Translations under genes and position numbers: made by a program
Shown here: positions 27,261-63,832 of the stretch, one piece after another
How the letters are laid out: each line of letters begins with the position of its first letter
Numbering within the stretch: position 1 is the first letter of the stretch
The notes under the pieces: generated by a model
Told to the model about the DNA's origin: nothing
The model's database searches: none
Seen by the model: the letters and a program-made list of their open reading frames with translations, nothing else
NCBI GenBank assembly: GCA_937976335.1
Contig: CALJRW010000025.1
Span: 7,103-71,102 of the forward strand
Reading direction: 5' to 3'
Length of the DNA: 64,000 nt
DNA from: an uncultured bacterium
GTDB taxonomy: Bacteria; Bdellovibrionota_C; UBA2361; CALJRW01

Positions 27261-27367
27261 ATATGTGCTTATTACGGCAAAAAATGGCTTTGCCATTATT
27301 TTCTCGCCCAACAAATCATTTAGTTTTCCCGCTTAAAAGCGGAAAAACCAAATGTCGTTGGGTATAT
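27261..27367 (+). repeat. MITE-A, 3'-half copy (truncated)
   Basis: TATGTGCTTATTACGGCAAAAAATGGCTTTGCCATTATTTTCTCGCCCAACAAATCATTTAGTTTTCCCGCTTAAAAGCGGAAAAACCAAATGTCGTTGGGTATA matches the 3' halves of the copies at 38.1, 45.4, 55.1(rc) and 63.8 kb. Confidence 0.8.
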
Positions 27368-27895
27368 CTAGGAGGAAAGCAAAAAAGATTCAATAATAGC
27401 ACTATTCGTAATCCCACGATTCACGGCCATTTTATTTAATTTACTGATAGCCTCAAGACTAAGGGTAAATGATTTAACTTTTTTGTGTTTATTGATGGGT
27501 TTTACTCTTTTGTCAGGAATTTCGAAATTAGCCCAATACTTCATTTTTGAGCATTCAATGCCCTTATATTTAAGTGGTAATTCGCTGCCATTTTTAATCT
27601 TTTCAATAATAGTTTGCAGTTCTTTTGGCATCTCTTCAATTCCAATAAAGTTGTTTTGAAAGTGAAGCAAGGCAGCTGGGAAAACTTCCAAAACTCTAGG
27701 CTCTACATTGCGGGCTACCCATAGAACATCTTTGATTCTTAAAATAACCTTATGTTTTGATTTTATTTTAGGATATTTTAAATAACCCTTTGCTATCAAG
27801 AATCCTAGAGTATTTTCTGCTCGTTCAGAGTTGAGATTTTTTAAGAATAGCTTTTGTAGTTCTTTGGTTTTTTTTATTATTTTATTGTTAGTCAT
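27368..27895 (-). CDS. Hypothetical protein with C-terminal ribbon-helix-helix (CopG/MetJ-like) DNA-binding domain; downstream gene of a two-gene module
   Basis: C-terminal KSFTLSLEAISKLNKMAVNRGITNSAIIESFL has the beta-strand/helix/helix RHH pattern. It starts at the nucleotide immediately after the stop of the upstream 163-aa gene. Confidence 0.55.
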   Translation of the reverse strand: MTNNKIIKKTKELQKLFLKNLNSERAENTLGFLIAKGYLKYPKIKSKHKVILRIKDVLWVARNVEPRVLEVFPAALLHFQNNFIGIEEMPKELQTIIEKIKNGSELPLKYKGIECSKMKYWANFEIPDKRVKPINKHKKVKSFTLSLEAISKLNKMAVNRGITNSAIIESFLLSS

Positions 27896-28387
27896 TTATA
27901 TTATCTCTTCTAATGAAATTTTATACTTTAAAAAGAGCTTTTCAAGCTCTACAGAGAATTCAGCTATAGCCTGTATAAGTAATTGTTTATTTTTTTCAGG
28001 TGCAAATTTAGCTTTTGAAACTAAAGTTGAAAATGAATCAATGACATGTACTGTAATCTTCTTAGAAGAATAATATTTCCAAAACTTAGCTTCTGTTGGA
28101 ATCCATATTTCTTTACTTAGTTCGTCATAGTCGTAGCCATGTGATCTTAGGATTTCTTTGAAATGAAATTTAATTGTAGAATCACCTTCAAGGAGCGCAT
28201 CTAAATCGTTAGTAGCAATTATATTTAACTTTTTATTTATGCTTTCATCTAATAATAGACTTGCTTGGCCGAGAACTTTGATTTGAATTTTCCCAGTTTT
28301 AGGTAGGCCATCTTGACAAAGTTGTTGATCGAGTTTGTTTACTATGCTTTCAAGCTCTTTTAGTATTTTATCTAAATCTTCTTTCAT
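27896..28387 (-). CDS. Hypothetical protein with possible minimal nucleotidyltransferase-like motif; upstream gene of a two-gene module (candidate toxin/abortive-infection component)
   Basis: VLGQASLLLDESINKKLNIIATNDLDALLEG resembles the G[GS]x(n)...DxD core of MNT/AbiEii-type NTases (weak, by eye). It is translationally abutted to the RHH gene. An AT-rich palindrome lies just upstream. Confidence 0.45.
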   Translation of the reverse strand: MKEDLDKILKELESIVNKLDQQLCQDGLPKTGKIQIKVLGQASLLLDESINKKLNIIATNDLDALLEGDSTIKFHFKEILRSHGYDYDELSKEIWIPTEAKFWKYYSSKKITVHVIDSFSTLVSKAKFAPEKNKQLLIQAIAEFSVELEKLFLKYKISLEEII

Positions 28388-28391
28388 AATA

Positions 28392-28432
28392 CTATATTAT
28401 AGTATTATATATTAATATAATATACTAATAAA
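28392..28432 (-). promoter_or_regulatory. AT-rich near-perfect palindrome immediately upstream of the 163-aa gene (candidate operator/promoter)
   Basis: TAGTATTATATATTAATATAATATACTA reads nearly the same on both strands. It lies 5-45 nt upstream of the start codon at 28387 (minus strand). Confidence 0.4.
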
Positions 28433-28562
28433 CTATTCTTTATTAACTTTCTGAAAATATTGAAGAAAAACCTATAAATTCGCAATCTTTGCTGCTTACT
28501 AGGTTCATTATTCTTATTTAGCTAACTGGATTAGCTCTTCTTGCTTATGGATTGTAAATTGG

Positions 28563-28748
28563 TAGCTAACTGCTACCAGCAACATTTTTATTTATTTTAC
28601 TCTACTGCTTTGCGTGAGTAACATTCTTCCGTTGTTCTTAGTTTTAAATTAAGAATTTGTTTATATCGACAAAAATTTTGAAAAGTTTCTTAATTTTTGA
28701 TTTTTTTTAGATTATTTCTGAAATAAATGTTGCTGGCACCAGTTAGTC
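28563..28748 (+). repeat. MITE-C copy 1 (~186 bp, with ~25-bp terminal inverted repeats)
   Basis: Starts TAGCTAACTGCTACCAGCAACATTT and ends AAATGTTGCTGGCACCAGTTAGTC, which are reverse complements. It is >90% identical to 30319-30507. Confidence 0.85.
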
Positions 28749-28922
28749 CACTCCTTTTCGGTGTCAAGAATTGTGACGCAACGTATATTAATTAGGTGCT
28801 AAGATACCTTTTCGGTGTCTTTTTTTATGACGCATATCGTCTCTAATTTTTTTTTGATTAAAAATACATATTTGTTAAAATAATATAAGTTAAAATTTTT
28901 CAAAATTATCTAGATATATCTT

Positions 28923-30245
28923 ATGTCATTGCAGGTTGAATATAAAAAATGCAATATTATTGATGCGACGAAGCTATTTCGAAAAAATGCCGAAATTTCA
29001 TTTAATGTTCCTGGCCGATCGCCAATTGAAATCGTAAAAAATTTAGGTGTTTTACAAGCTGATGTTGCAGAGGCTCTTGGGTTAAAATGTACTGAACGAG
29101 TTAGGCAGCTACTTGACGGAAAAAACGGTAGATTTCCATTGGAAAGAAACATAATTCGTGTGGCAACAGCTATTAAAGAACTTTGTTCTGCAAAAGTTAG
29201 AAATGGAGAGATTCTTTATCGCAAGGAAAAGAGTCAAATAGAGGAAGAAAGAAAAAAAAGTCTTTTTTTTCGTGAAATCTTTGGAAGTAATATTGATTCA
29301 ATTTTAAAACATTTTGAAGGTAAGAGTTTTAAAGAAACTTGCTTAGATCTAATTTCAAGAATTTATTTAAGTAAACGTAAGTTTTTAAGTGATCTTCAAA
29401 AATTTTCATCAGATTTTAGAAGTGATTTTTCTATTTTTACGGCAAGTGATGAAGAAATTATAACAATAGCGAAACTTTTAAAATCAGATCTAAGATTTTT
29501 TCATGAAAATCAAATTCTCTTAAAATCAAGCAAAGAAAAAACTAATGCAATTAAAAAACTTGTTTTAAACTTTTTTCTGGAGCAGGTAGGGTGGATAGGT
29601 GAAGATAATCAAGGCATTGAAAAAGATATGCCTGATGATATATTTCTAGGGTTAGAGTCCGGAGAGATACTTAAGGTTTTGCGTAATTCAGTCGGTCTTA
29701 TTCAACCTGAAATTGGAGAAGCAATAAACTTATCAAAAAAAAGGATAGCGCAAGAGTTACAAGAGCATTATAAGAAACCTTTTTTGGCTTACAGTATCGA
29801 AGATTTTGAAGCGCTAGTAGATAAAACTTTTGAGAAACATGAACTTTCAGAAATTAATTCAGGTTTGCAGTTAGCGATTATATTTGAAAAATACAATTTA
29901 ACTTCACTTAGTAGAAGAGAGAATACAGCCTCTCCCCTTCAGCTTATTGAAAGAAGTATGGTTATTGCAAATATGCTAAGGCCTAAATTGTTTTTCTTAA
30001 AATTTAAAGGCTTGCTTCAAGATAAAATTGAAGAAAGTATTAAAAGAGTAAAAACTGGGAAAGCAGAGAAGACGAAAACATTGGTCCGTCCTTGGTCAGC
30101 TAAACTAGAAAATGAGTTTAAAGAGTGGATTGCTTTGGGAGAGGAGCGTCAAATTAGAGAACGTCAAAAGTATGGCAAGGATTCGATGGTAGATCCAGGG
30201 GAGATAGTTGTTGGGGAGAAATATCAGTTTGCCTTGGAAGACTAA
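28923..30245 (+). CDS. Hypothetical 440-aa protein with two XRE-like helix-turn-helix motifs, flanked by direct MITE-C copies
   Basis: IEIVKNLGVLQADVAEALGLKCTERVRQLLDGKNG and EILKVLRNSVGLIQPEIGEAINLSKKRIAQELQ both fit HTH_3-like patterns. The rest is Lys/Glu-rich helical sequence with no recognisable catalytic motif. Confidence 0.6.
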   Translation: MSLQVEYKKCNIIDATKLFRKNAEISFNVPGRSPIEIVKNLGVLQADVAEALGLKCTERVRQLLDGKNGRFPLERNIIRVATAIKELCSAKVRNGEILYRKEKSQIEEERKKSLFFREIFGSNIDSILKHFEGKSFKETCLDLISRIYLSKRKFLSDLQKFSSDFRSDFSIFTASDEEIITIAKLLKSDLRFFHENQILLKSSKEKTNAIKKLVLNFFLEQVGWIGEDNQGIEKDMPDDIFLGLESGEILKVLRNSVGLIQPEIGEAINLSKKRIAQELQEHYKKPFLAYSIEDFEALVDKTFEKHELSEINSGLQLAIIFEKYNLTSLSRRENTASPLQLIERSMVIANMLRPKLFFLKFKGLLQDKIEESIKRVKTGKAEKTKTLVRPWSAKLENEFKEWIALGEERQIRERQKYGKDSMVDPGEIVVGEKYQFALED

Positions 30246-30318
30246 ATAGCAGATGTCTGTTAAACCTCAAATCGATCTAGAAAGGGCATATAAATTTTTA
30301 AAAAGTTAATTATGCAAA

Positions 30319-30507
30319 GTAGCTAACTGCTGCCAGCAACATTTTTATTTATTTTACTCTACTGCTTTGCGTGAGTAACATTCTTCCGTTGTTCTTAGTT
30401 TTAAATTCAGAATTTGTGTATATCAACAAAAATTCTGAAAAGTTTCTTAATTTTTGATTTTTTTTTTAGATTCTTTCTGAAATAAATGTTGCTGGCACCA
30501 GTTAGTC
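30319..30507 (+). repeat. MITE-C copy 2 (same orientation as copy 1)
   Basis: Near-identical to 28563-28748, including the TIRs TAGCTAACTGCTGCCAGCAACATTT / AAATGTTGCTGGCACCAGTTAGTC. Confidence 0.85.
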
Positions 30508-30519
30508 TACTATAGCTTT

Positions 30520-34793: not shown

Positions 34794-34837
34794 TTTGTAA
34801 TATTACACTTTTTTGAGAAGCTTTTCCAATTATAGTT

Positions 34838-34962
34838 TAAACCTGAATTCGGGATAAAAAGCGTTACGAAAAAATTAAGATGCTGAAATATTTGAACGAA
34901 AAAATAAAAATTAGATTGCAGCAGTAGCTTTCTTATCCCAAATTCAGGTTTAAAGCGAAAAA
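34838..34962. repeat. Inverted-repeat-bounded 125-bp element (hairpin/MITE-like)
   Basis: GTTTAAACCTGAATTCGGGATAA ... TTATCCCAAATTCAGGTTTAAAGC: ~22-nt arms that are reverse complements, enclosing ~75 nt of AT-rich sequence. The arm motif CCTGAATTCAGG also occurs at 63902-63913. Confidence 0.7.
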
Positions 34963-37953: not shown

Positions 37954-38065
37954 TTAGCTCCTATTGGGTGATATTCAACTAACTAAAACTATTACATATT
38001 TTGAAAAAATGCAATTTTAATTACAATGCTAGGAAATAAAATTTATTTTGAAAAATATTAGTTAC

Positions 38066-38252
38066 ATAGTGCTAGACATTCGGTTTTTCCGTTTTTTTTT
38101 CTTGCAATTTTTGCATAGCATAAATTCAGTTTTATTTGTTCGAGCAGTATATGTGTTTATTACGGCAAAAAATGGCTCCGCCATTATTTTGCTCGCCCAA
38201 CAAATCATTTAGTTTTCCCGCTTGAAAGTGGAAAAACCAAATGACGACAGAT
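38066..38252 (+). repeat. MITE-A copy (full-length, ~190 bp)
   Basis: Begins ...TAGTGCTAGACATTCGGTTTTTCCG and ends CGCTTGAAAGTGGAAAAACCAAATGACGACAGATATA. The internal sequence TTGCAATTTTTGCATAGCATAAATTCAGTTTTATTTGTTCGAGCAGTATATGTG...TTACGGCAAAAAATGGCTCCGCCATTATTTTGCTCGCCCAACAAATCATTTAGTTTTCCCGCTTGAAAG is shared with the other copies. Confidence 0.85.
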
Positions 38253-38387
38253 ATATAAATTTTATAAGCTTTCCCTTACACTTTAATGTTTCTTATTAAG
38301 TCGATTACATTTTTTAGAAAAAAAGTACTAAATTTATACCTTGGATTTATCGAAGAAAGTATTTATTAAAATTTAAGAAATTCGAAA

Positions 38388-39950
38388 TTAGTCATAATCA
38401 GGAAAATCAGCATAACTATCTACTCTTTCTTGAAGTTCTTTTAATTTCTCTTTTGCATCTATTGGATAGCTTGTATCAAATAAAGCAATTTGTACTTTTG
38501 GGAATTTTTCACTTAACCAACTTACAAGTTCATATTCAGTATTTAGATCCTCTTTCATGTCACCAGTTTTTTCGAGACTGTAGCAGATAATTATGGTTGA
38601 ATAGAGATCTTCTTCTGGATACATAATTTCGAGCATTTTTTCTAACATTTCTCTAGTTTGCTCTAAATCTCCAAAAGGTAATTTGATATCATAACTTGCA
38701 TTTGGGGTATCATTATAAAGGGCTAAAACTAATTTTTGAGTGACTTCATGAGCTCTATTTTTTGGCTCTTTATTAAAACGTGAGTTTTTGAAATTTAAGT
38801 TTGTAAATTTTTTAATACCTTCTTTCCCATATTGGAAAACAAGAGCATCTATAACACCTGGCGAGAGCTCACAATTTACAAACCCAAACTTTTTTGTATC
38901 CATAAATGCAAGAGCTCTAAGCGCTTTTTCATCGTCTACTAAAGCTCCTTCTAAAAATAAATAAGAAAGTTCTTCTGGAAGTAGAAGTAGAATCTCGTTC
39001 ATGTTTATTCTTTCTTTGTTAGGAGTTCCGTGCCTCATTTCTGTAGAATAAGAAAGTGAAAAGTAATTTAATTTACTAAAATTTAAGGTTTTTAAAATTT
39101 CTACTATATCATTCCCACTTATATTAGGCTCGTAAGGAAGGGTTTTAAGCTCTAACGACTGTAAATTTTCTATTTCACTAAGTGATTTAGCAATAATAAC
39201 ATCATCATCGCTACCATTTAAAATAGCTGTAAAAGAATAAACTTTCATTTCATTTATTACTTCAATAATAGCAGATATTGCTTTTGGCTTATCTTTTAGA
39301 CCTTCTAGCTCTATCAATCGATTAAGATCTATTGTAGGGTTGCTCCATCTTACGTCTTCATCTATCGGTATAATACCTAAATCAATGAGTGAAAAAGTTA
39401 AACTTAGATCTTCAATTCCTTCTTTCTCTAGTGCTTTAGTGATTTTTTGGTAAGCTGAATTAAGCCGCTCCAACTTTTTATCACTGTAATCACAAGTTCT
39501 GTCATCTAGCTCTACATGTTTTTTAATTTCTTCTATTGCAATATCAAGATCTTCTCTTTCTCTAAAAATATCTGCATATAGGATTAGAAGATCTCTTCTT
39601 AGCGTGAATGTATTTTCTGAACTACCGCTTTTTTTAATAAAGTTATATTTCTCTAAGTTTGCAATTATTTTTTTGCTGCTAAGTGATTTCAAACTTAAGT
39701 CATTTTCTCTAGAACTAAATAATGGAGCAAAGCTTTGGTTCCCATTTAATTCTAATTTAAGTACTTCAGTGCTTACATCTAGACTTCTTGAACTATTACC
39801 TGCTACGTCTAAATTTCCAAGATATAGGTCCGCAGCTTCAGTTAAGGATTCAGCGTTTTTATCTACTACTGCATCTTTTACTGAAATTTTACCTTCAGTG
39901 TTAATGCTTACGACTTGATCGGGTCTCGCATCTTGTAATTCGTCTCTCAT
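38388..39950 (-). CDS. Hypothetical 520-aa protein with leucine-rich-repeat-like segments
   Basis: Repeated L-x-x-L-x-L-x-x-N/L-like units (e.g. LNFSKLNYFSLSYS, LLLLPEELSYLFLEGALVDDEKALRALAF, LELKTLPYEPNISGNDIVEILKTL). No signal peptide. No catalytic motif recognised. Confidence 0.55.
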   Translation of the reverse strand: MRDELQDARPDQVVSINTEGKISVKDAVVDKNAESLTEAADLYLGNLDVAGNSSRSLDVSTEVLKLELNGNQSFAPLFSSRENDLSLKSLSSKKIIANLEKYNFIKKSGSSENTFTLRRDLLILYADIFREREDLDIAIEEIKKHVELDDRTCDYSDKKLERLNSAYQKITKALEKEGIEDLSLTFSLIDLGIIPIDEDVRWSNPTIDLNRLIELEGLKDKPKAISAIIEVINEMKVYSFTAILNGSDDDVIIAKSLSEIENLQSLELKTLPYEPNISGNDIVEILKTLNFSKLNYFSLSYSTEMRHGTPNKERINMNEILLLLPEELSYLFLEGALVDDEKALRALAFMDTKKFGFVNCELSPGVIDALVFQYGKEGIKKFTNLNFKNSRFNKEPKNRAHEVTQKLVLALYNDTPNASYDIKLPFGDLEQTREMLEKMLEIMYPEEDLYSTIIICYSLEKTGDMKEDLNTEYELVSWLSEKFPKVQIALFDTSYPIDAKEKLKELQERVDSYADFPDYD

Positions 39951-40194
39951 GGTTTATTTATCTCAAATTTATCAAATTAGCATTTCTTACGTAAAGTTAT
40001 GAAGTATTTTAGAAATTTGTTGCTTTTGGAGCAGTAAATTATCAGTTTTCTTTCATTACCTCACTTAATAGCCTAATATTATTAGCTATTTACGTAGTGA
40101 GTGAGTTAATTTTGATTCTTAGTTTTTATCACTACTGTCCCAAACGGCATTCACTTATGCGTATCTGCTTTTAATCATTAAAGAATCGCGAAAT

Positions 40195-40375
40195 TTTAAA
40201 GACTAAGTTTTAGTCTTTTTAGGATTCATGTTAGAGCTGCCGTAAGCTTTGTGCCAGGCAGAGCTCACTTTAAGCCTGATGAGATACCTACAGACTTAAA
40301 TCTACCTAAAAGTAAGTGGACAGCTTCTCTTGGAAACTAACTGATGCCAGTTACTTCCACCACAACAAAGATAAC
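40195..40375. ncRNA. Candidate structured non-coding element (GC-richer segment with two compensatory stems) in a 480-bp divergent intergenic region
   Basis: GAGCTGCC-N15-GGCAGAGCTC and AAGTAAGTGG-N~40-CCAGTTACTT pairings. Local GC ~45-48%, against ~30% nearby. No ORF. Confidence 0.25.
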
Positions 40376-40435
40376 AGTAAACAAAACAAAACTTTTGTCG
40401 ATTACTTTATTGAACAGTTTTAAAAGGCAAAATTT

Positions 40436-41125
40436 ATGATAATCAGAACAAACTTAAACCAAATAAACCAAATAGCTAAATTCAATCCATCTCGTAGCAT
40501 GCCTAGAATGCAATTTAAGAATGGCTTACCTAATATTAAAAAAGAGAATATATCTAAAACTTTAAGCTCTTTAAATCCAAAAGAAGCTAAAGCTTTACTA
40601 AATGACAAAAAAGCACTTAAAAAATTCACAAATGATTTAGCTAAAAAACATGGTATTCCAAAAGAAAAGATAAAAGAATTAGAAAATTTCGTTCTAAAAT
40701 TACTAAAACAAATTGGTGAACAATCTGCAGGTGCAACTTCTGAAACAAAAACAAGTAAAAATAAAAAAACAACAGAAACAGGCGCTGCATCTAAAACTTC
40801 AGGAGGGGGACATACTGGAGGAACTTCTAACCAATTCTTGTGGAAACCACAATCTGAATCAAATGGAAACTTAGTGGTTCTTCTACCTGCAAATATGTCA
40901 GGAAATGTTAAATCATTAGAAGTTCTTTCACCTGACGGCAGCACAGTTTTAGCTAGCGGTCAGCAAGCAGGAATTGCAAATGGCGGTAGAGAACATTTTC
41001 GATTTAATAAACCTGGAGCAAGTTTCCCAGATGGCGCACTCGTTAAAATTCAAATGAAAGACGGCAGTAGCAAAACAGTGAAAATTGGAGATTCTGCAGG
41101 GAGAAATGAGAAAAACAGTTTATAA
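40436..41125 (+). CDS. Hypothetical protein (229 aa), Lys-rich N-terminus and beta-rich C-terminal domain
   Basis: The ORF has a protein-like composition. The overlapping antisense ORF (40420-40944) is hydrophobic junk. No motif recognised. Confidence 0.45.
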   Translation: MIIRTNLNQINQIAKFNPSRSMPRMQFKNGLPNIKKENISKTLSSLNPKEAKALLNDKKALKKFTNDLAKKHGIPKEKIKELENFVLKLLKQIGEQSAGATSETKTSKNKKTTETGAASKTSGGGHTGGTSNQFLWKPQSESNGNLVVLLPANMSGNVKSLEVLSPDGSTVLASGQQAGIANGGREHFRFNKPGASFPDGALVKIQMKDGSSKTVKIGDSAGRNEKNSL

Positions 41126-41184
41126 CAGCATTTTTTGACAAAACCTCAGTATAAACCCAAAATGATGCTCAACAATTAAAACAC

Positions 41185-41276
41185 TAGAAACTCTATATCT
41201 CTAGAACTCTGTGTCACTATGAAAAACACACTTGATTCCTTAGTGACGCAGAGGTCTAGAGATGTAGAGTTTCTAG
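41185..41276. repeat. Long imperfect inverted repeat (~36-nt arms, ~20-nt loop) upstream of mrcA
   Basis: CTAGAAACTCTATATCTCTAGAACTCTGTGTCACTA ... TAGTGACGCAGAGGTCTAGAGATGTAGAGTTTCTAG; the arms are reverse complements with 3-4 mismatches. Confidence 0.7.
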
Positions 41277-41303
41277 ATGAGCTCCTGAAGGCTATCTAAA
41301 AGA

Positions 41304-43703
41304 ATGTCAAAAAAGAAAAAAGTAGTTAAAAAAAGAAAACGAAAAAAATCTAAAAAAAATTCTTCAAAATTACTATTAAGTAGCATTTTTAAAATATGTA
41401 TATTTTTATTCCTAATTTTCGTAATAAGTATTTTTGGACTTTACCTTTATGTTGATAATAAAGTCGTCAAAGAATTTCTAGAAACTAAAATTTCACGAGG
41501 TGGCAATATATTAACTGCTGAAAGAAAGCTTTATAGCGATTCTGGATTAACACTTAATAAGTTTATTGATATTTTAAAAAGAAGAAATTATCGAGAAAAT
41601 TTAGTTAAGAATATAAAGCCAGGTGAATACTTTAAAAATAAAGATTCAGTTATTTTTAAAGTTCTTTCTTTTGATAATCCAACTAAAGCTGAAAAGACTT
41701 TTATATTTACAAACTCAAATTTTTATAATTCTAATTTTAAAAAAATTGGCCAAGTAAATTTAAGCTCTACAACTTTAGAAACTAACGCTACCTCCGCTCA
41801 AAGATTAGACGACTTTGTTAGTCTTGATAAAATTCCAAAATCAGTAACGAAAGCAATTATCTTAACCGAAGATAAAAGATTTTTCGACCATCTTGGAATT
41901 GATTTTAAAGGCATATTTAGAGCTCTTTTTGAAAACATCATTGCTGGCCGTGTTGTCCAAGGCGGCAGCACTATTACTCAACAACTTGCTAAAAACACTC
42001 TGCTCTACCCAAAAAGAACTATCAAAAGAAAAGTTCTAGAAATATTTGCAGCAATATCTCTTGAAAGAAGATTATCAAAATTTAAAATATTGGAAAGATA
42101 TTTAAATGAAGTATACTTGGGACAAAAAGGCAATTATGCAATTCATGGAGTAGGCTTAGCAAGTAAATATTTTTTTCAAAAACCTTTAAAAGATTTAAAT
42201 CTTTCAGAATCTGCAATGCTTGCTGGCTTAATTAAAGCTCCATCTTATTATTCACCTGTTCGTCATTTAGATAGAGCAACACAAAGAAGAAATGAAGTTT
42301 TAAATATAATGCTTAGCTCAAAGGCAATTTCAAATAAGGAATTAAAAAAAGCAAAATCTCATTCACTTTCTATTAAAGCTAGTAAATTACAAAAACAAAG
42401 TGCTCCCTTTTTCAACATTCAGCTTAGAAAAAAATTAAGAGAATTTGATTCGCTTGAAAGACTAGATGTGCATACAACTTTAGATCTAGAACTACAAATT
42501 TGCGCTGATAATGCAATAAATACTGCTTTAAAAGTTTTAGAGAAAACTCACGCAAACATTAAAGCAAATACACTTCAAGCGGGATTAATTTCAATAGAAC
42601 CACATAGTGGATATATAAGAGCGTGGTCTGGGGGTAGAGATTATAGTAAGAATCAATTCGATCATGTACTGTCTGCAAAAAGACAAATTGGTTCAACAGT
42701 TAAACCCTTTGTTTATTTAACTGCTCTTGATAAATCTCTAAATAACTATAAGGCTGCAACCCCTACTACAATAGTAAGAGATGCACCCTTTGAAGTAAGA
42801 GTTCCTAGCCAAGATCCTTGGCGACCTGAGAATTTTGATAAAGAATATCGAGGAGATGTAACCATCAGATATGCACTAGAAAAATCTCTTAACGTACCTG
42901 CTGCTTACTTAGGTCAAAAGGTAGGAATTAAAAACATAGCTAAAGTTCTCGAAAAATTTCGTATTGGAGAAAAAATACCAGAAGTACCTTCTCTTGTCCT
43001 GGGAGCTCTTGATACCAATCTGCTTCAACTCACAAGCGCCTACTCAACACTTGCTAACTCTGGAATCTACCTAAAACCTAAATTATTTCAAAAAATAACA
43101 GACTCTAAATCAAGAGTAATTTTTGATTCTGGATTTCAAGAAGAAAAAATTGTTAATGATGGAGAAATATATGTTCTAACAAACATGCTTCAAGGAGTGC
43201 TTGAAAGAGGAACAGGTAAAATAATTAGAAACTCTAAGATTACTAGACCACTTGCTGGAAAAACAGGAACATCAAACGAAATGCGTGATTCATGGTTTAT
43301 AACTTATAGCCCAAATCTTGCTACAGGCGTTTGGCTTGGGAGAGATGATAATTCTCCTACCGGATTAACAGGTGGAGGTGGTGCTGGGAAAGTTATGGTT
43401 GAGTACCTAAAATGTATTAATCCTTATATACCTAAAGCTGATTTTGTTAAACCAAAAAATGTAGAAATAGTTGAAATTGACTATAAAACTGGCTCTCTTG
43501 CTAGTAGTAATTGTCCTCCAGAAAATGTAATTAGTGAAGTTTTTGTTGCAAATTCTCAACCAAATGATATTTGTAGAGCACACGATTTTATTGACCCAAA
43601 TAAAGCTAAAGTAAGTAAAAAGAAAAGAATTCCTAGACAAGAAAACATTCAAAAACCTAAGCAAAGGAAGAGAAGTTTTTGGAATAGGTTGTTTGGGGGG
43701 TAA
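41304..43703 (+). CDS. mrcA: Bifunctional class A penicillin-binding protein 1A (glycosyltransferase + transpeptidase)
   Basis: GT51 motifs EDKRFFDHLGID and GGSTITQQLAKN. Transpeptidase motifs STVKPF (SxxK), SLN and KTGT. N-terminal TM anchor. 799 aa with a Lys-rich tail. Confidence 0.92.
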   Translation: MSKKKKVVKKRKRKKSKKNSSKLLLSSIFKICIFLFLIFVISIFGLYLYVDNKVVKEFLETKISRGGNILTAERKLYSDSGLTLNKFIDILKRRNYRENLVKNIKPGEYFKNKDSVIFKVLSFDNPTKAEKTFIFTNSNFYNSNFKKIGQVNLSSTTLETNATSAQRLDDFVSLDKIPKSVTKAIILTEDKRFFDHLGIDFKGIFRALFENIIAGRVVQGGSTITQQLAKNTLLYPKRTIKRKVLEIFAAISLERRLSKFKILERYLNEVYLGQKGNYAIHGVGLASKYFFQKPLKDLNLSESAMLAGLIKAPSYYSPVRHLDRATQRRNEVLNIMLSSKAISNKELKKAKSHSLSIKASKLQKQSAPFFNIQLRKKLREFDSLERLDVHTTLDLELQICADNAINTALKVLEKTHANIKANTLQAGLISIEPHSGYIRAWSGGRDYSKNQFDHVLSAKRQIGSTVKPFVYLTALDKSLNNYKAATPTTIVRDAPFEVRVPSQDPWRPENFDKEYRGDVTIRYALEKSLNVPAAYLGQKVGIKNIAKVLEKFRIGEKIPEVPSLVLGALDTNLLQLTSAYSTLANSGIYLKPKLFQKITDSKSRVIFDSGFQEEKIVNDGEIYVLTNMLQGVLERGTGKIIRNSKITRPLAGKTGTSNEMRDSWFITYSPNLATGVWLGRDDNSPTGLTGGGGAGKVMVEYLKCINPYIPKADFVKPKNVEIVEIDYKTGSLASSNCPPENVISEVFVANSQPNDICRAHDFIDPNKAKVSKKKRIPRQENIQKPKQRKRSFWNRLFGG

Positions 43704-43811
43704 TTTTTTACAAATCATAAAAAATACTTAGTGCCATTGTTAAACTACTAGTGTATCTTAATAGTCGAGTTCGCTCTGAGAAAAAAGAATTTTGAATCAA
43801 TTTCGGAAAAA

Positions 43812-44485: not shown

Positions 44486-45277
44486 CTAATATTCAGTCAA
44501 AATCTCAGCCCCATCCCTAGTAACCAATACCGTATGCTCCCATTGCGCCGATAACTTTCCATCTAAAGTCCTTACCGTCCATTCATCAATTTTTGAAAGT
44601 ACTGTTCTCCAAGTTCCCATATTGATCATAGGCTCGATAGTAAAAGTCATTCCAGAACGCATTGTTGGGCCAGTTCCTTTTTTACCAACATGAAGCACTT
44701 GAGGTGGCTCATGAAAAGAACTTCCTATTCCGTGTCCAGTATATTCACGAACAATACCATAACGGTGATCTTGCTTAGAAATATATTTTTCAATTGCTGC
44801 ACCAATATCTCCAAACTTTGCTCCAGGCTTAACAATTTTTATTGCAGCATTTAAACTTTGTTTAGCAACATCAACTAAAGTTTGAACTTCTTTAGAAGCA
44901 GTCTCTCTACCACCAACAAAATACATTCTGCTACTATCGCCAAAAAAACCATCTTTGATTGAGGTGACATCAACATTTAAGATATCTCCTTCTTTTAAAA
45001 TTACAGATTTACTTGGAATTCCGTGACAAACTACTTCATTTGGAGAGGTACAAACAGATTTAGGAAAGCCTTTATAATTTAAAGTCGCTGGAGTTGCTCC
45101 TAAATCAAGTGTCATTTTATGAACAAAGGTGTTGATATCTTCTGTATTTATCCCTGGTTTAACGATATCTCCTACTGCGGTAAGAATTTGAGATGTAATC
45201 TTACACGCGGCTTTAAGTAGCTCTATTTCTTCAGGAGTTTTGATTTTGATTTTTGACATTAGCTTTCTATGTAACAC
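44486..45277 (-). CDS. map: Methionine aminopeptidase type I
   Basis: Metal ligands in conserved context (FFGDSSRMYFVGG, HGIGSSFHEPP, TFTIEPMIN, WEHTVLVT). 263 aa. Confidence 0.93.
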   Translation of the reverse strand: MLHRKLMSKIKIKTPEEIELLKAACKITSQILTAVGDIVKPGINTEDINTFVHKMTLDLGATPATLNYKGFPKSVCTSPNEVVCHGIPSKSVILKEGDILNVDVTSIKDGFFGDSSRMYFVGGRETASKEVQTLVDVAKQSLNAAIKIVKPGAKFGDIGAAIEKYISKQDHRYGIVREYTGHGIGSSFHEPPQVLHVGKKGTGPTMRSGMTFTIEPMINMGTWRTVLSKIDEWTVRTLDGKLSAQWEHTVLVTRDGAEILTEY

Positions 45278-45340
45278 ATTGAGATGATAGGCTCAATTAG
45301 CAGATAATTTTGATAAACTACAGTTTTTCTGTATATACTA

Positions 45341-45532
45341 AAACATATTAGGTTTTACTGTTTTTTTCTTAAAATTTATGCATAGCATAAATTCAGATTT
45401 ATTTGTTCGAGCAGTATATGTGCTTATTGCGGCAAAAAATGGCTCCACCATTATTTTGCTCGCCCAACAAATCATTTACTTTTCCCGCTTGAAAGCGGTA
45501 AAACCAAATGTCGTTGGGTATAATTGATTGTA
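45341..45532 (+). repeat. MITE-A copy (full-length)
   Basis: GTATATACTAAAACATATTAGGTTTTACTG ... AGCGGTAAAACCAAATGTCGTTGGGTATA. Terminal segments are mutually reverse complementary (~27 nt). Confidence 0.85.
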
Positions 45533-45554: not shown

Positions 45555-46346
45555 ATGTCGATAGATGGATTATTACAACAAGAAGATGCTAATCAGCGTA
45601 CAGCGCTCACAGGCACTCCTGAAACGCAATCAGTTCTTGACTTCTTTGCTAGTAAAATTGCTGGACCAGCTCAACGAACTGTAACAAAAATGTTTATTGC
45701 TAGGGAGTTACTTAGTGACTTTAATGAGCCCCATATGGCTGTTTCAAATTGCAGATTAATCAATGATCTAAAATCAGATAAAGCGAATCCAAATAGTGCT
45801 CAGTTACTTCTATCTACTAGCCTAAGTGTCTATAAAACAATTCGAGAACTAATTGATCAAAGCTCTGTCCAAGGCACTGACTACCTAAGAGGATATGTAA
45901 ATGATGCGGTAGAGAGACTAGAACGCGATCTTGCATGTGACATCACAACTACAAGTGATGAGACAACAGTTAAAGGTATGTCTAAAGAACGTATTAAAGC
46001 TATACCAACTACTAAAGACTTCCCAGCTATTGATTCACCCTTTGTTTTGAAAGCATACGAGTTTGTATTAGTTGGTTCTAATATGGGTGCTCGTAAAACT
46101 AGCATTCGTTTTAAAACTCACTTTGGTCTTGACGGATCAGAAAACGGAGGTGCAGAGTTTCTTCATATATATATGACGCCCGCTGCTATGGCTACTGCTT
46201 TTCAAAGAGTTATTAAATCTATCCCAAGATTAATAGTCGATGGAGATTGTAAACAAAAATTATCTCAAGCAGCTGTGAAAATAATGAAGGGATTTGAAAA
46301 AGGGTTCTTAAATGCGTCAAGTAATATGCCTTGGCTGTCAATATAA
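45555..46346 (+). CDS. Hypothetical protein, heme-oxygenase-like fold suspected
   Basis: YEFVLVGSNMGARK resembles the Y-x-LEGS-x-LGG helix of HemO/PigA/HO-1 heme oxygenases. 263 aa, all-helical composition. Local GC appears somewhat higher than in neighbouring genes. Confidence 0.4.
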   Translation: MSIDGLLQQEDANQRTALTGTPETQSVLDFFASKIAGPAQRTVTKMFIARELLSDFNEPHMAVSNCRLINDLKSDKANPNSAQLLLSTSLSVYKTIRELIDQSSVQGTDYLRGYVNDAVERLERDLACDITTTSDETTVKGMSKERIKAIPTTKDFPAIDSPFVLKAYEFVLVGSNMGARKTSIRFKTHFGLDGSENGGAEFLHIYMTPAAMATAFQRVIKSIPRLIVDGDCKQKLSQAAVKIMKGFEKGFLNASSNMPWLSI

Positions 46347-54212: not shown

Positions 54213-54950
54213 CTAAAACGTAAAATTTTGTAAATCTTCACCAATAATTATCCTACCTTTAAAACCCTTATTTTTCGCAGCAGATTGCAGTTTAGGCAAA
54301 TTAAGCTCAGCATAAATATGGGAACAACAAAGAGTGCCAACTTGAGTTTCGCTTGCAAGCTTAACTATTTCTTCAGGCGTAGGGTGACCTGCATCAATAA
54401 CAGCAAAATCTTTGTCTTTTAAAAAATCAACTTCATTTTGATGGAAGTAAGAATCTCCCGTAAGGGCAATTTGATTACCATTAAGGGTAAAAGATACTCC
54501 GTGATTACTAGCGGGCGGTAAAGAGGCAAAGGAAAAAGTTTTTCCGGCAATTTCATAACTTCCTTCTTTAATCTCATGAATTTTAATCTGTTGATGACTT
54601 ATAAGTGCTTCACTACCATAAAAATCAAGCATCTTATTAATAAAGTCTTGTAGCCCTTCTGGGCCCCAAATATGAAGGACTCGATTTTCTTCTCTAGGTT
54701 CTTGCCTAGACCACGCTCCTGATTGTAAAAAAGGTACTAAATCAGATACATGATCAGGATGAAAATGGGATATAATTATATTATTTATTTCATTATTTTT
54801 GATTTCTAATTCTGCCAATCTATCAAAAATACCATGCCCCATGTCAAAGACAATTTTTTCATTTTTTGTTGTAATTAAAACACTAGATGCTCTTCTATTA
54901 GCATTTAACTCACAAGTTCCGGTACCTAAAAGTGTAATTGATTCCATCAT
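54213..54950 (-). CDS. MBL-fold metallo-hydrolase
   Basis: HFHPDH motif (HxHxDH), downstream His/Asp ligands (TGDSYF, DAGHP). 245 aa. Confidence 0.8.
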   Translation of the reverse strand: MMESITLLGTGTCELNANRRASSVLITTKNEKIVFDMGHGIFDRLAELEIKNNEINNIIISHFHPDHVSDLVPFLQSGAWSRQEPREENRVLHIWGPEGLQDFINKMLDFYGSEALISHQQIKIHEIKEGSYEIAGKTFSFASLPPASNHGVSFTLNGNQIALTGDSYFHQNEVDFLKDKDFAVIDAGHPTPEEIVKLASETQVGTLCCSHIYAELNLPKLQSAAKNKGFKGRIIIGEDLQNFTF

Positions 54951-55030: not shown

Positions 55031-55232
55031 TATACTCAATGACATTTGGTTTTTCCGCTTTTAAGCGGGAAAACTAAATGATTTGTTGGGCGAGCAAAAT
55101 AATGGCGGAGCCATTTTTTGCCGTAATAAGCACTTATACTGCTCGAACAAAAAAAACTGAATTTATGCTATGCATAAATTTCAAGAAAAAAAACGGTAAA
55201 ACCAAATGTCGAGCAGTATATACTCAACGACA
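55031..55232 (-). repeat. MITE-A copy (full-length, inverted orientation relative to the other copies)
   Basis: The reverse complement of 55031-55232 reads TCGTTGAGTATATACTGCTCGACATTTGGTTTTACCG...GCTTAAAAGCGGAAAAACCAAATGTCATTGAGTAT, colinear with the other copies. The small + strand ORF 55078-55293 lies inside it and is rejected. Confidence 0.85.
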
Positions 55233-55343
55233 CTTACAACTTAAAAGCAGTTTTCTATTAATTATATCTCCTAGGTCGTTAAAATTTAATTAATAAGTCA
55301 AACTACGCTAGACTTTTATATTTACTCAAAATAAAGTAGTAAA

Positions 55344-56375
55344 ATGCAAAAAACTACTCGATTTGCTTTTATCTTATTTGGAATACTAACTACACTTCTA
55401 CTGCTTGAAGTTATTTTCAGGATAAGCAATTTAAATCATCAGCAAATAAAAAGCGATCGCCCAAGCTTTTACTACAAACACTGGGCCTCTCCCAGTATGA
55501 GAGATTTTATATACGATATTCAAAAACCTAAAAATACCTTCAGAGCTGCAATTATTGGCGATTCATTTACCTTTGGAAGCAGTATACAATTTGACGATAC
55601 TTACCCGAAACGAATAGAAAGAATGTTAAATCTTTCTCAAAATGAAATTTGGTCAGAATTTATGAATTTTGGCATTCCTGAGTATTCGCTCAAAGATAAA
55701 AAAGAATTAATATCTAAAGCCTTGAAGTATAACCCTGATTTACTTATCTTACAAATCAACCTTAATGACTTTTATTTAAATACAGACAATAAATCTACTC
55801 TTAAAGATAAAAATAAATTCTTAAAAGTAAACAAAACTGAAAATTTTTTAACTAAGAATTTCACTTTAGTTAACATAGCATCAAAAATATTAGATACTTA
55901 CAAAGCTCAAGCTACATACAAGAAGTTTTATTTAGATTTAGTAAGCAATGAAACTTCTTGGACGAACTTTAAAAACACTATAGCTTCAATACAAAAAAAT
56001 TGCGTTGAACAAAATAGACACTTTGCCGTTATCATGTTTCCTCTTTTTGGCTTTCCAATTGATAAAAATTATCCTTTTCTAAAAACTCATCTAAAAATTA
56101 AAAATTTCCTTACGAGCCAAAATATAAAAAACTTAGATCTTTTAGAAAAATTTAAAAATCTCTCTATCAAAGCGCTAAGAGTAAACTCTAATACTAACTT
56201 TCTTCCAAATGAAAGGGCTCATAGAATAGCTGCAGAAGAAGTATATCTCTGGCTTGAAAAAAATAAGCTCATTCTTCAAAAAATTAAATTGAAAGAAAAA
56301 TTTACTCAAAGAGTTAATATTAAGCCAAACAAGAATTTTCCTTCAAATATGCATTTCTCAAATTTAGAAAATTAA
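55344..56375 (+). CDS. SGNH/GDSL-family hydrolase (esterase/lipase-like)
   Basis: N-terminal TM/signal. Block I AIIGDSFTFGSS (GDSxxxG). 343 aa. Confidence 0.65.
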   Translation: MQKTTRFAFILFGILTTLLLLEVIFRISNLNHQQIKSDRPSFYYKHWASPSMRDFIYDIQKPKNTFRAAIIGDSFTFGSSIQFDDTYPKRIERMLNLSQNEIWSEFMNFGIPEYSLKDKKELISKALKYNPDLLILQINLNDFYLNTDNKSTLKDKNKFLKVNKTENFLTKNFTLVNIASKILDTYKAQATYKKFYLDLVSNETSWTNFKNTIASIQKNCVEQNRHFAVIMFPLFGFPIDKNYPFLKTHLKIKNFLTSQNIKNLDLLEKFKNLSIKALRVNSNTNFLPNERAHRIAAEEVYLWLEKNKLILQKIKLKEKFTQRVNIKPNKNFPSNMHFSNLEN

Positions 56376-57506: not shown

Positions 57507-57617
57507 AACCTAAACTATAGAAATAAATAGATCAAGAGCTAGGAAGAATGAATATTTTGTAATTTAGAACCAAAATATAATGTCTTGCATCTAACATTTA
57601 AGAAGACTAAAAAATTA

Positions 57618-57806
57618 GTCTTTATGGGTTTGTCGGAAAATAGAATTCGTCGCGAGAAAAAAGATTTTTGAGTTAAAGGTTGAAAAAATGAAAATAAAAA
57701 ACGCAGGCGTATCAGTAGGATACCTTGAGTATTTTTCTTTTCATTTTTTTAATCTTTAGCCAAAAAGCTTTTTTTGTAGCAGAATTCTATTTTCCGACAG
57801 ACCCTT
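57618..57806. repeat. Inverted-repeat-bounded ~190-bp element (MITE-like) with nested internal palindrome
   Basis: GGGTTTGTCGGAAAATAGAATTC ... GAATTCTATTTTCCGACAGACCC (23-nt arms, 1 mismatch). Internal GAAAAAATGAAAATAAAAA / TTTTTCTTTTCATTTTTTT. The 5' arm region AATAGAATTCGTCGCGAGAAAAAA recurs at 1125-1148. Confidence 0.75.
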
Positions 57807-57846
57807 TATGTCGGATTTATGAAGGTTAAAAAATCGAGAGGCGTTA

Positions 57847-58254
57847 ATGGACAAATATACATATCAAGAAGAAAGCGAGAAAGATGTAGAAAAATTTTTA
57901 TCAACTGCTATGGACTTAGATTTTGCAGGTCTTATCTGGGAACCTGAGATTGGGGATGAAGTTGCTCAAAGAAATGCACCTCAAAACATATCCATTTTAA
58001 TTGATCCTGAGGGAATGGCACTAGCTGAACTACGTTCAACATACGTATGGCTTCCAAATACAGAACAAATCATTGCTCAACTTGAAGCTAAGCAGGCTGT
58101 TCTTTTTCACGCTGGATTAGAGCTAGAAGATTCAACTACATGTTATAAAACTTTTATACAGACACCAATTGGCCCTATCCAATCAAAAGCTACAACCTTA
58201 AGAACTGCAATGGCGCTTTCATTGTTACAGGTTATTGCTGGCGGGGTGCATTAG
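57847..58254 (+). CDS. Hypothetical protein (135 aa)
   Basis: The ORF has a balanced, acidic composition. No motif recognised. RBS GAGAGG 7 nt upstream. Confidence 0.5.
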   Translation: MDKYTYQEESEKDVEKFLSTAMDLDFAGLIWEPEIGDEVAQRNAPQNISILIDPEGMALAELRSTYVWLPNTEQIIAQLEAKQAVLFHAGLELEDSTTCYKTFIQTPIGPIQSKATTLRTAMALSLLQVIAGGVH

Positions 58255-61616: not shown

Positions 61617-62099
61617 TTGGATAAGAAAGTCAATAATTTGAAAATTGCACTCATAGATCCCCAAATTCCCCAAAACACTGGATCTATTGCTAGAACCTGT
61701 GCGGCTACAGAGAGCGCTCTATATGTTCTTGGAAATCCTGCCTTTGAAATTAGTGATAAGAAGGCAAGACGTGCTGGACTTGATTACTGGCCTTACGTGA
61801 ATCTTAATCAGTATAAGTCCTGGGAGGAATATCTTGAGAAAACAAGTAGTGAAAATTTCTGGTATTTTTCAAAATTTGGTAAAATTGACTATTGGGATGT
61901 TAAATATACTTTAAATGACACGCTTGTATTTGGAAGTGAGACCAAAGGGCTCGGTGAAGAATTTTTAGCTAATGTTCCAAATAACAATATAGTTAAGATA
62001 CCTATGTCTTCTCCAAATGTAAGAAGTTTAAATTTAAGTAATGCTGTTTCAATTGGCTTATATGAAGCTTTGAGGCAAAACATGAGCCATAGTCAGTAA
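61617..62099 (+). CDS. trmL: tRNA (cytidine/uridine-2'-O)-methyltransferase TrmL (SpoU/TrmH family)
   Basis: Colinear with E. coli TrmL: IALIDPQIPQNTGSIARTC, ARRAGLDYW, LVFGSETKGL, SLNLSNAVSIGLYEALRQ. TTG start. Confidence 0.88.
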   Translation: MDKKVNNLKIALIDPQIPQNTGSIARTCAATESALYVLGNPAFEISDKKARRAGLDYWPYVNLNQYKSWEEYLEKTSSENFWYFSKFGKIDYWDVKYTLNDTLVFGSETKGLGEEFLANVPNNNIVKIPMSSPNVRSLNLSNAVSIGLYEALRQNMSHSQ

Positions 62100-62163
62100 T
62101 TCTTTAAGTTTTTTCTAAGCTCAAAAACTCACATACTCTTGAACTCTACATCAATAGACATTA

Positions 62164-63030
62164 CTAAACTCTAATCACATTCTTCTTAACTGGCAAAACA
62201 AAAATAATTAGAACAAGAGAAATAGCAATTAAAGAAATTGGTTGGCTTAAAAGAAAAATTCTATTTATGACCGCAAGATCAGGTTTAAAATTTTCAGAAA
62301 CATGACAAAATAAGTTAACCGATCTCTGAATAATTATCCATCCGAAATGAAGTCCCATACAAATTGAGAGTGAGTTGGTTTTTATTTTTGCATAACATAA
62401 TGTCATTCCTAAAAGAAATAAACCAAGAAATGGAATTAAGAAGTCTGGATTAAATAGACCATTAAAAATTGAAAATACATAATGAAAACCTGAGAGAGGG
62501 CTAAAACTTATGTAAGTAAAAATTTTATTAGGAGCGATAAAATGAACAACTGCAAAAACTAGACTAACAACTAGAGAAGCAGTGAAAACTGTCATCTTTG
62601 TTCTTAACTTTTCAAACAAGACTCCTCTAAAAAAAGACTCTTCAATAAGAGATACAACAGTAGCTGTCATAAGTATTTTTAAAGCTCTTTTACAGAAATA
62701 AGAAAAGCTAAAGGTATTGACTATAATTACTTTTGTGTAAAATAAATATGGTAAAAAAATTAACGAACTGAAAATACTTAAGATTAGTCCATAAAAAAAG
62801 TATTTTTTTATTTTGTTTTTTTCTTTAGATTTAAAATCAGAAAACGTAAAATCTTTTCTTAATACATAAAGAGCAATTAAAACACCTAAAATTAAAACTC
62901 GATCAAAAATCCTACTAAATGGCCAAGGCAAGGTTTCGGTAAAAAAAAGAATTATTTCACAAGCAAAGGGTGTAAGCAAAACACCTGTAATAAGGGTAAT
63001 TAATACTAAAAGACCAATAGATCTTAACAT
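62164..63030 (-). CDS. CPBP (CAAX protease) family intramembrane metalloprotease
   Basis: Motif 1 EESFFRGVLF (EExxxR). Motif 2 FAVVH. 6-8 TM helices. 288 aa. Confidence 0.8.
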   Translation of the reverse strand: MLRSIGLLVLITLITGVLLTPFACEIILFFTETLPWPFSRIFDRVLILGVLIALYVLRKDFTFSDFKSKEKNKIKKYFFYGLILSIFSSLIFLPYLFYTKVIIVNTFSFSYFCKRALKILMTATVVSLIEESFFRGVLFEKLRTKMTVFTASLVVSLVFAVVHFIAPNKIFTYISFSPLSGFHYVFSIFNGLFNPDFLIPFLGLFLLGMTLCYAKIKTNSLSICMGLHFGWIIIQRSVNLFCHVSENFKPDLAVINRIFLLSQPISLIAISLVLIIFVLPVKKNVIRV

Positions 63031-63074
63031 TTTAGACTGTTCCTTTTTAAATCCTAGATGATAATATCAAATTT

Positions 63075-63521
63075 ATGGTATTCTTAGATCTTATACAAGC
63101 TAATGAAATTATGCCTTTGTTAATAGCTACCGGATTAGGCAGTCTCATTGGCTTAGAGCGTGAAATTGCAGGAAAAGACCCAAGCCTTAGAACATTTTCT
63201 CTTATCTGTCTTGGCAGTTGCTTATTCACTATAATGTCTACAGAAGCAGCCTTAGGGGTGCCAAATGCTGATCCTGGACGAATAGGCGCACAACTAGTCT
63301 CAGGTATTGGCTTTCTTGGAGCTGGTGCTATTTTTAGATCCAAGGATGGGGTTGCAGGACTTACCACAGCAGCCTTGATATGGATGACGGCAGCTATTGG
63401 TATGAGTGTTGGATTTGGAAAGTATAAAACCGCAATTACGAGTACTATAATTGCTTTAGCCATTCTTACTAGTCTTAGTTTAGTGCATAAAATTTTTCGT
63501 GCTTTACGATCTGATAAATGA
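63075..63521 (+). CDS. mgtC: MgtC/SapB family membrane protein
   Basis: ATGLGSLIGLEREIAGK...GAQLVSGIGFLGAGAIFR...GLTTAALIWMTAAIGMSVG is the conserved MgtC N-terminal domain. 148 aa. Confidence 0.82.
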   Translation: MVFLDLIQANEIMPLLIATGLGSLIGLEREIAGKDPSLRTFSLICLGSCLFTIMSTEAALGVPNADPGRIGAQLVSGIGFLGAGAIFRSKDGVAGLTTAALIWMTAAIGMSVGFGKYKTAITSTIIALAILTSLSLVHKIFRALRSDK

Positions 63522-63522
63522 A

Positions 63523-63832
63523 TATACTGCGCGACATTAGGTTTTACCGTTTTTTTTCTTGCAATTTGTGCAGAGCATAAATTCAGTTTTATTTGTTTGA
63601 GCAGTATATACTAAAACACATTAGGTTTTTCCGCTTTTTTGTCAAAGACTAAAGCCTAAACTTTGTGTTTTAGTATATGTGCTTATATTGGTTCGATTTG
63701 GCTAAAGCCAAAGTCTCACTCATCACCAAACTTTTTGAGTTTTTAGGAAAAACTCAAAATCGGTGACTATATGTGCTTATTAAGGCAAAAAATAGCTTCG
63801 CCATTGTTTTGCTCGCCCAACAAATCATCTAT
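63523..63832 (+). repeat. MITE-A composite copy: one unit interrupted by a nested ~150-bp insertion, 3' end truncated
   Basis: 5' part AATATACTGCGCGACATTAGGTTTTACCG...GTTTGAGCAGTATATA. The insert begins again with CTAAAACACATTAGGTTTTTCCG and contains the IR TATATACTAAAACACA / TGTGTTTTAGTATATG. The original unit then resumes with GTGCTTATTAAGGCAAAAAATAGCTTCGCCATTGTTTTGCTCGCCCAACAAATCATC. Confidence 0.75.

Follow-up and report, generated by a model that had tools for sequence, protein, structure and literature searches.

Five dispersed copies in a 64-kb window

The 64-kb stretch of contig CALJRW010000025.1 analyzed here (hereafter, the window) harbors a family of small, non-coding, hairpin-rich repeats with inverted ends. 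A window-wide repeat search, together with blastn of each copy against the window, returned exactly five loci and no others; these share 86-95% pairwise identity by alignment, fall inside ~37 kb of the window, and are all intergenic. The full-length unit measures 189-191 bp and is bipartite, consisting of a left module (L, ~87 nt) and a right module (R, ~105 nt). The initial annotation had already recognized these five loci as copies of a MITE, a miniature transposable element with inverted repeats. Its copy number, and its account of a small, dispersed, non-coding element bounded by terminal inverted repeats (TIRs), are borne out, as is the intergenic placement of every copy, judged by open reading frame (ORF) context at all five loci. 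Its coordinates located the copies correctly but set the limits of C (45341-45532) and D (55031-55232) off by ~10 nt; TIR-based limits are given below. The simple MITE that it described is indeed small and TIR-bounded, but more modular than proposed, with one copy consisting of R only and another being a chimera of two subfamilies. The copies and their parts are as follows (a slash within a sequence marks a module boundary).

27261-27366, plus strand: copy A, R module only, comprising hairpin 1 (GGCAAAAAATGGCTTTGCCATTATTTT), hairpin 2 (long), and the right TIR ...CGGAAAAACCAAATGTCGTTGGGTATA; on the left it is bounded exactly at the L/R junction (GAATA/TGTGCTTATTAC), and it ends 1 nt away from the stop of ORF 27368-27895 (minus), between convergent genes.
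38065-38255, plus strand: copy B, full L+R, with decayed tips (CATAGTGCTAG... and ...GACGACAGATATA); flanked by the stop of ORF 38388-39950 (minus) on one side and the start of yebC (minus) on the other, thus between co-directional genes and upstream of yebC-ruvA-ruvB.
45334-45522, plus strand: copy C, full L+R, with a left tip (TATACTAAAACA) of the subfamily-2 type, which makes it a chimera of subfamilies; between the divergent map gene (44486-45277, minus) and ORF 45555-46346 (plus), its right end and flank reading GGGTATAAT, 32 nt ahead of the ATG.
55031-55220, minus strand: copy D, full L+R, inverted, with the best-preserved TIRs (22/27 positions); between a divergent metallo-β-lactamase (MBL)-fold gene (54213-54950, minus) and a GDSL/SGNH-like gene (55344-56375, plus).
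55219-55233, plus strand: solo TIR tip of 13-15 nt, TATACTCAACGACAC, abutting the left end of D with a TA in common (…GAGCAGTA-TA-TACTCAACGAC…).
63523-63831, plus strand: copy E overall, comprising an L module, a nested insert, and a truncated R module.
63523-63607, plus strand: L module of E, beginning 1 nt past the TGA stop of an MgtC-family gene (63075-63521).
63607-63677, plus strand: X1, the L-like part of the insert, a 71-nt palindrome with 14-nt perfect tips.
63674-63771, plus strand: X2, the R-like part of the insert (~98 nt), which starts with TATGTGCTTAT, contains two hairpins, and ends with GGTGACTATA.
63770-63831, plus strand: R module of E, cut off after ...CCCAACAAATCATCTA; an unrelated palindromic repeat follows from 63830.

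Copies A and E thus each have one boundary no more than 1 nt away from a stop codon. The heme-oxygenase-like label previously given to the gene at 45555, next to copy C, found no support in Pfam or NCBIfam. In the Logan annotation, the precomputed Pfam label PF23023 (Anti-Pycsar_Apyc1) is attached to the MBL-fold gene beside copy D; a direct Pfam scan listed only Lactamase_B and Lactamase_B_2. No copy lies within the first 27 kb of the window (1-27 kb), which is largely occupied by a tightly packed type II secretion system (T2SS) operon. Within that cluster, a 518-aa PilM/PilN-like ORF (22523-24079) contains 15-nt tandem repeats (TTGAYTCTSRARCTA-like, three or more units) at 22686-22744.

The host is an uncultured, low-GC (~33%), deep-branching bacterium. 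Its RuvB protein is at most ~70% identical to anything among 5.8 billion proteins, and the named matches are metagenome-assembled genomes (MAGs) labelled Bdellovibrionales, Deltaproteobacteria, or Proteobacteria. The organism has been seen in a single sequencing run (ERR9287621) and belongs to a poorly sampled lineage; about one quarter of the window ORFs longer than 100 aa match neither a Pfam nor an NCBIfam family.

Module architecture, ends, and nesting

Module L reads TATACTGCTCGACATTWGGTTTTACCG-T8-...AATTTATGC-ATA-GCATAAATT...TTGTTCGAGCAGTATA, with 12-nt inverted tips of its own that close it. Module R opens with TGTGCTTATTACGGC and carries two hairpins, the first being GCAAAAAATGGC-TCC-GCCATTATTTTGC and the second a ~26-bp stem (CCCAAC..CATTTAGTTTTCCCGCTT-GAAA-AGCGGAAAAACCAAATG..GTTGGG) followed by TATA. 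The two modules meet at GTATA/TGTGC, or in a longer form at GAGCAGTATA/TGTGC. Counting junctions between module and flank as well as those between modules, 13 of 13 read ...ATA/T or ...ATA/A. Both subfamilies retain four discrete hairpins. The interior motifs singled out by the initial annotation exist, although TTGCAATTTTTGCATAGCATAAATTCAG is exact in B only and ATGGCTCCGCCAT in B and D; its small hairpin is likewise present, but as CCGCTT-GA-AAGCGG, one base shorter than written there.

The 27-nt terminal motif can be summarized as TATAC-N6-ACATTWGGTTTTWCCG. When the degenerate form TATACNNNNNNACATTWGGTTTTWCCG was searched with up to 3 mismatches, 9 ends were matched, versus 0.00 expected from 100 shuffles. 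The ends had been described as reverse complements of each other. They are inverted repeats, but imperfect ones, since the two ends of one copy agree at just 18-22 of 27 positions; the 6 nt following TATAC show a systematic difference, being TGCTCG on the left and CCAACG on the right. The solo tip beside copy D (55219-55233) is of the same type as the opposite end of D, at 55031.

Copy E provides the clearest view of how these units combine. Its insert (63607-63771, 165 nt) lies precisely at the TATA of the L/R junction, and removing it in silico restores GAGCAGTATATGTGCTTATT, the junction found in B and C; TATAT/TATA/TA flanks the insert on either side. X2 is 75% identical to R (z 6.8), and X1 is 78% identical to L over aligned pairs (z 5.8). 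With an L-like X1 followed by an R-like X2 in the same bipartite layout, the insert represents a complete but diverged element belonging to a second subfamily. The nested unit noted previously is thus confirmed but is larger than reported, comprising not only the 71-nt palindrome delimited by TATACTAAAACACA/TGTGTTTTAGTATA but also the R-like module of ~98 nt. Each copy, as well as the insert, is flanked by TA or TATA (TATAT around the insert), a signature inseparable from the TATA termini of the elements themselves and built on a dinucleotide that is common in 33%-GC spacers.

The R module of E is truncated, leaving this copy without hairpin 2 and the right TIR. The sequence that abuts and truncates it belongs to a third palindromic repeat family, with copies at 11150-11212, 13089-13178, and 63830-63898, arms of approximately TATAGTTATCCCAAAAAGTAATTTCCGAA, and ends that likewise read ...CTATA/ATATA. 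The stretch 63523-63920 consequently packs together four or more distinct small repeats; after it, at 63900-63918, lies the palindrome AAACCTGAATTCAGGTT, which is related to a short inverted-repeat motif, TTTAAACCTGAATTYGGGATAA, found elsewhere in the window (see below).

The proposal that the family was recently active is not borne out. The copies are 5-14% apart, the tips of B have decayed, and E has lost its right end; this divergence, together with the damaged copies, speaks against very recent activity.

Searches beyond the window returned one additional copy. Using the longest ORF of the element as a protein probe, a single called "protein" (P0121) was retrieved from a different NCBI/ENA contig of 20,002 nt. 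Its 88% identity over the element and its location on a separate contig identify it as a further copy outside the window, and the contig presumably comes from the same MAG. This copy is the sole evidence bearing on genome-wide abundance, and the initial proposal of a major genome component accordingly gains no support. A concatenated query of four other reading frames had no match among the 5.8 billion proteins. At the nucleotide level, a conserved 22-mer and the degenerate TIR gave no exact-pattern matches in 185,579 species genomes. Exact matches were likewise absent from JGI metagenome contigs (TIR and hairpin-2 patterns) and from IMG/VR viral contigs (TIR pattern), and blastn at the "distant" setting found none in plasmids and phages. 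The host genome itself is evidently missing from these collections.

An independent Logan short-read assembly of run ERR9287621 offered a check on the window itself. One of its contigs (L001) begins inside the L module of B, and another (L002) spans from inside the right hairpin of C to inside D. Because these independently assembled contigs break inside B, C, and D, the repeats are not an assembly artefact. Exact-protein look-ups for strain variants returned only Logan contigs of this same run, and those with yebC and MgtC found nothing. The closest relative with retrievable DNA (contig L003, 68% RuvB identity) has neither a TIR nor a repeat at its syntenic yebC locus, and is too distant for this to count as an empty site. 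On the contig of a relative (P0024), yebC and a class-A penicillin-binding protein (PBP) gene are divergent neighbors ~90 nt apart; here, they are ~3.3 kb apart (37954-41303). The intervening stretch, which may be an inserted segment, holds copy B, two family-less ORFs (38388-39950 and 40436-41125), and a hairpin at 41184-41276 with 41-nt arms (88% complementary) and an 11-nt loop, just upstream of the PBP1-type gene (41304-43703).

Probable mobility and alternative explanations

The feature is real, and the MITE reading appears broadly right, if incompletely proven. Prokaryotic MITEs are defined in practice as AT-rich, intergenic elements of less than 500 bp with TIRs of 4-30 bp and stable stem-loops, and element-in-element clusters are known in pneumococcus (PMC10969869). 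The present family shares with this working definition its length, lack of coding capacity, TIRs, and multiple dispersed, AT-rich, intergenic copies (PMC10969869). We therefore consider it probable, short of certain, that these repeats constitute a family of non-autonomous, TIR-bounded, MITE-like mobile elements with a full length of ~190 bp, built from L and R modules.

On this reading, a transposase encoded elsewhere in the genome would bind the conserved inner part of the ends (ACATTWGGTTTTWCCG) and cut at the terminal TA or TATA, and the element would enter AT-rich intergenic sites containing TA or TATA. Insertion would duplicate the TA, possibly TATA or TATAT, so that the TA beside each copy would be a true target duplication. 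An enzyme of the IS630/Tc1-mariner-like type would fit such a target. Since TATA occurs at both termini and at the L/R junction, resident copies would offer fresh targets, which would account for the nesting in E, the tip abutting D, and the stacked modules. Any effect on neighboring genes would most likely be passive, as with other bacterial MITEs, through hairpins placed in 5' or 3' untranslated regions.

Several observations weigh against this reading. Pfam searches of ~50 window ORFs, supplemented by NCBIfam searches of 10 unassigned ORFs, gave no transposase, recombinase, RAYT, TnpB, or Y1_Tnp-type match in the 64-kb window, which thus contains neither a transposase nor a parent insertion sequence (IS) with these ends; the IS200/IS605 or IS5-like parent suggested by the initial annotation accordingly gains no support. 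The putative target-site duplication (TA/TATA) is indistinguishable from the TATA termini of the element. The 6-7 nt beside the termini are unlike between the two ends, which is unusual for tips cut by a transposase, and the pairing partner of each tip lies instead within the same module, in stems that co-vary between the two subfamilies (TGCTCGA/TCGAGCA versus TAAAACA/TGTTTTA, and CCCAAC/GTTGGG versus TCACC/GGTGA). These internal fold-back partners may point to a fold-back origin of the mini-elements. R-type modules have no TIRs of their own, and copy A consists of R alone with an edge exactly at the L/R junction, an arrangement that a simple one-piece MITE does not predict. Finally, the organism is known from one sample only, with its nearest RuvB at most ~70% identical.

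Many of these same observations favor the alternative that survives best, although we regard it as unlikely: that an HUH/Y1 enzyme, not a DDE transposase, moved hairpin modules in single-stranded form, much as in IS200/IS605-derived PATEs or REP/RAYT systems. Cleavage would follow TATA, and a module landing 3' of a TATA and itself ending in TATA would regenerate the target, producing head-to-tail stacks and no true target duplication. Each junction indeed reads ...(G)TATA/T, and modules occur solo (A, R only), stacked (E, as L/X1/X2/R), and abutted (D). Moreover, both element ends are fold-back hairpins with co-varying stems, R-type modules have no TIRs of their own, and an unambiguous target-site duplication is absent. 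Against this stand the 27-nt TIRs of the full element, with their conserved 16-nt core, given that IS200/IS605-type elements typically have no TIRs; the arms, which do not resemble GC-rich REP palindromes; and a window without a Y1/HUH transposase, TnpB, or RAYT. The 4:1 orientation of the copies is uninformative on this point. A bolder version, in which self-stacking fold-back hairpin modules are mobilized as single strands by an HUH-type or novel TATA-cutting enzyme and the terminus-adjacent stems are under structural selection, strikes us as likewise unlikely. If true, single-stranded DNA hairpin modules would amount to a new REPIN-like system with an AT-rich target and a built-in "landing pad" in a deep-branching, low-GC relative of Bdellovibrio-like MAGs.

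It is improbable that the repeats are instead structured small-RNA genes or cis-regulatory RNA modules (terminators, attenuators, or mRNA-stabilizing hairpins) that are maintained by selection on RNA structure and were duplicated rather than transposed. This idea draws on the very stable predicted folds of copy D (plus strand, -68.1 kcal/mol, z -9.2; minus strand, -57.7 kcal/mol, z -6.3), but strong folding is automatic for any palindromic DNA. The retention of four hairpins in both subfamilies is also compatible with it, as are several tip changes in D and B that stay G-U compatible, on one strand only. Two copies lie directly 3' of stop codons, and hairpin 1, having both an A-tract and a T-tract, resembles a weak terminator acting in both directions. 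Among the five copies (subfamily 1), on the other hand, there are no compensatory double changes, and the paired fraction equals that of the shuffle control. Rfam 15 gave no match at the gathering score across the whole window, and a relaxed scan of copy D yielded only sub-threshold chance matches. Furthermore, the copies occur in both orientations relative to neighboring genes, no conserved promoter is present, and the precise nested insertion argues for DNA mobility.

Promoter analysis bears on this idea and on the next. The promoter-like TTGCAA-N-CATAAAT segment proposed initially does not hold up, with a spacer of 11-13 nt rather than 16-18 nt (TTGCAA to CATAAAT/TAAATT) and a TTGCAA that is not conserved (TTAAAA in C and TTGAAA in D). 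A sigma-70 scan detected no promoter-like hexamer pair inside any element; the sole matches pair a flanking -35 with the terminal TATACT in the role of -10, and are no more numerous than in shuffles. Invertons, that is, ~190-bp promoter or terminator segments flipped between 27-nt inverted repeats by a site-specific recombinase so as to switch adjacent genes, are very improbable. In favor of this idea, three copies are located 5' of genes (for two of the three, the neighbors are divergent), the termini form inverted repeats, and one copy is oppositely oriented; against it, no promoter consensus lies inside the element, two copies sit at gene 3' ends, one is half an element and another has lost one inverted repeat, a recombinase gene is absent from the window, and Logan contigs match the window orientation at the three ends reached.

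Remnants of a duplicated gene fragment, which the initial annotation had named as a refuting outcome, or a family of small-protein genes, are effectively refuted by the coding analysis: an ATG ORF (MICWASKIMAEPFF...) is open in C (45 aa), B (48 aa), and D (71 aa), and a gene caller called a similar ORF in P0121, but stops occur in all six frames of the element, the recurrent ORF shows 12 nonsynonymous versus 2 synonymous differences without bias toward third positions, suffers a frameshift in A and an interruption in E, ends in differing C-termini because its poly-A length varies, and has P0121 as its only relative among 5.8 billion protein sequences.

Should the MITE-like family be confirmed genome-wide, it would be a previously undescribed one in a poorly sampled lineage and a marker of genome plasticity there. 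The repeats could also explain the fragmentation of short-read MAGs of this organism, considering that the retrieved ERR9287621 contigs begin or end inside them, and they provide a small test case for the nesting and mosaic formation of palindromic elements.

Neighboring repeats and known systems

The window contains further repeats beside this family. A second, unrelated TIR-bounded repeat of ~190 bp (ends GTAGCTAACTGCTACCAGCAACATTT and AAATGTTGCTGGCACCAGTTAGTC) occurs as two direct copies, at 28560-28752 and 30319-30511, with ~97% identity and 1757 nt apart. The pair brackets a 440-aa ORF (28923-30245) without a Pfam or NCBIfam match; the whole, 28560-30511, could be a composite unit or an unrecognized mobile gene. 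The motif TTTAAACCTGAATTYGGGATAA forms a short inverted repeat at 34836-34860 and 34930-34954, with a 69-nt spacer, downstream of a DUF4390 gene; Logan contig L001 ends in this region too. A large imperfect palindrome at 57612-57818 (57-nt arms, 72% complementary, with nested 49-nt arms) lies upstream of ORF 57847-58254, and its arm sequence (..GGAAAATAGAATTCGTCGCGAGAAAAAAG..) recurs at 1106-1154 and 43745-43793.

Among known systems, the Correia elements of Neisseria (CREE/NEMIS) offer a close parallel to the present family. They are ~100-200 bp long, carry TIRs of ~26-27 nt that start with TATA, and use a TA target, so that the duplication is inseparable from the terminus; they are intergenic, often promoter-proximal or 3' of genes, produce long-hairpin transcripts, and have no known parent transposase (see PMC10969869 for some of these properties). 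The host lineage here is unrelated, being a distant relative of Bdellovibrionales/"Deltaproteobacteria" MAGs, and, unlike Correia, the present family consists of two modules whose TATA junction takes up insertions. Outward promoters have been demonstrated in Correia elements, which also carry an IHF site; no counterpart was detected in this family. To our knowledge, the leading TATA is all that the two TIRs have in common, which makes the resemblance a lead rather than a test.

The likeness to REP/BIME, REPIN-RAYT, and IS200/IS605 PATE systems lies in hairpin-forming extragenic repeats that build mosaics and insert beside a short fixed motif, and mobilization of those elements does not leave a target duplication. 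REPs, however, are GC-rich palindromes of short length that have a conserved GTAG-type 5' motif and are linked to a RAYT gene, whereas the present arms are AT-rich, 26-27 nt long, and not self-palindromic, and the window ORFs gave no Y1_Tnp-type Pfam match. Neisserial NIME arrays, in which dRS3 repeats bound RS units, are similar in that different short repeat units are parted by a constant boundary motif, here GTATA/T; the boundary in this family is just TATA rather than a 20-nt inverted repeat, and the copies mostly stand singly instead of forming long arrays.

The pneumococcal BOX, RUP, and SPRITE elements are likewise small intergenic repeats of modular make-up, BOX being assembled from A, B, and C modules. 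RUP is regarded as an IS630-type, TA-targeting MITE. According to the account of PMC3049150 given in PMC10969869, these elements form clusters in which one is inserted into another. Individual BOX modules do not have TATA at their boundaries, and RUP has a known parent IS, whereas the present family has none so far; no kinship in sequence is expected. Bacterial MITEs that target TA, yield hairpin transcripts, lie close to promoters, and form nested clusters have been well documented, and the repeats in this window neither open nor close a major question. They are best read as a previously undescribed but fairly ordinary family of miniature transposon-like elements.

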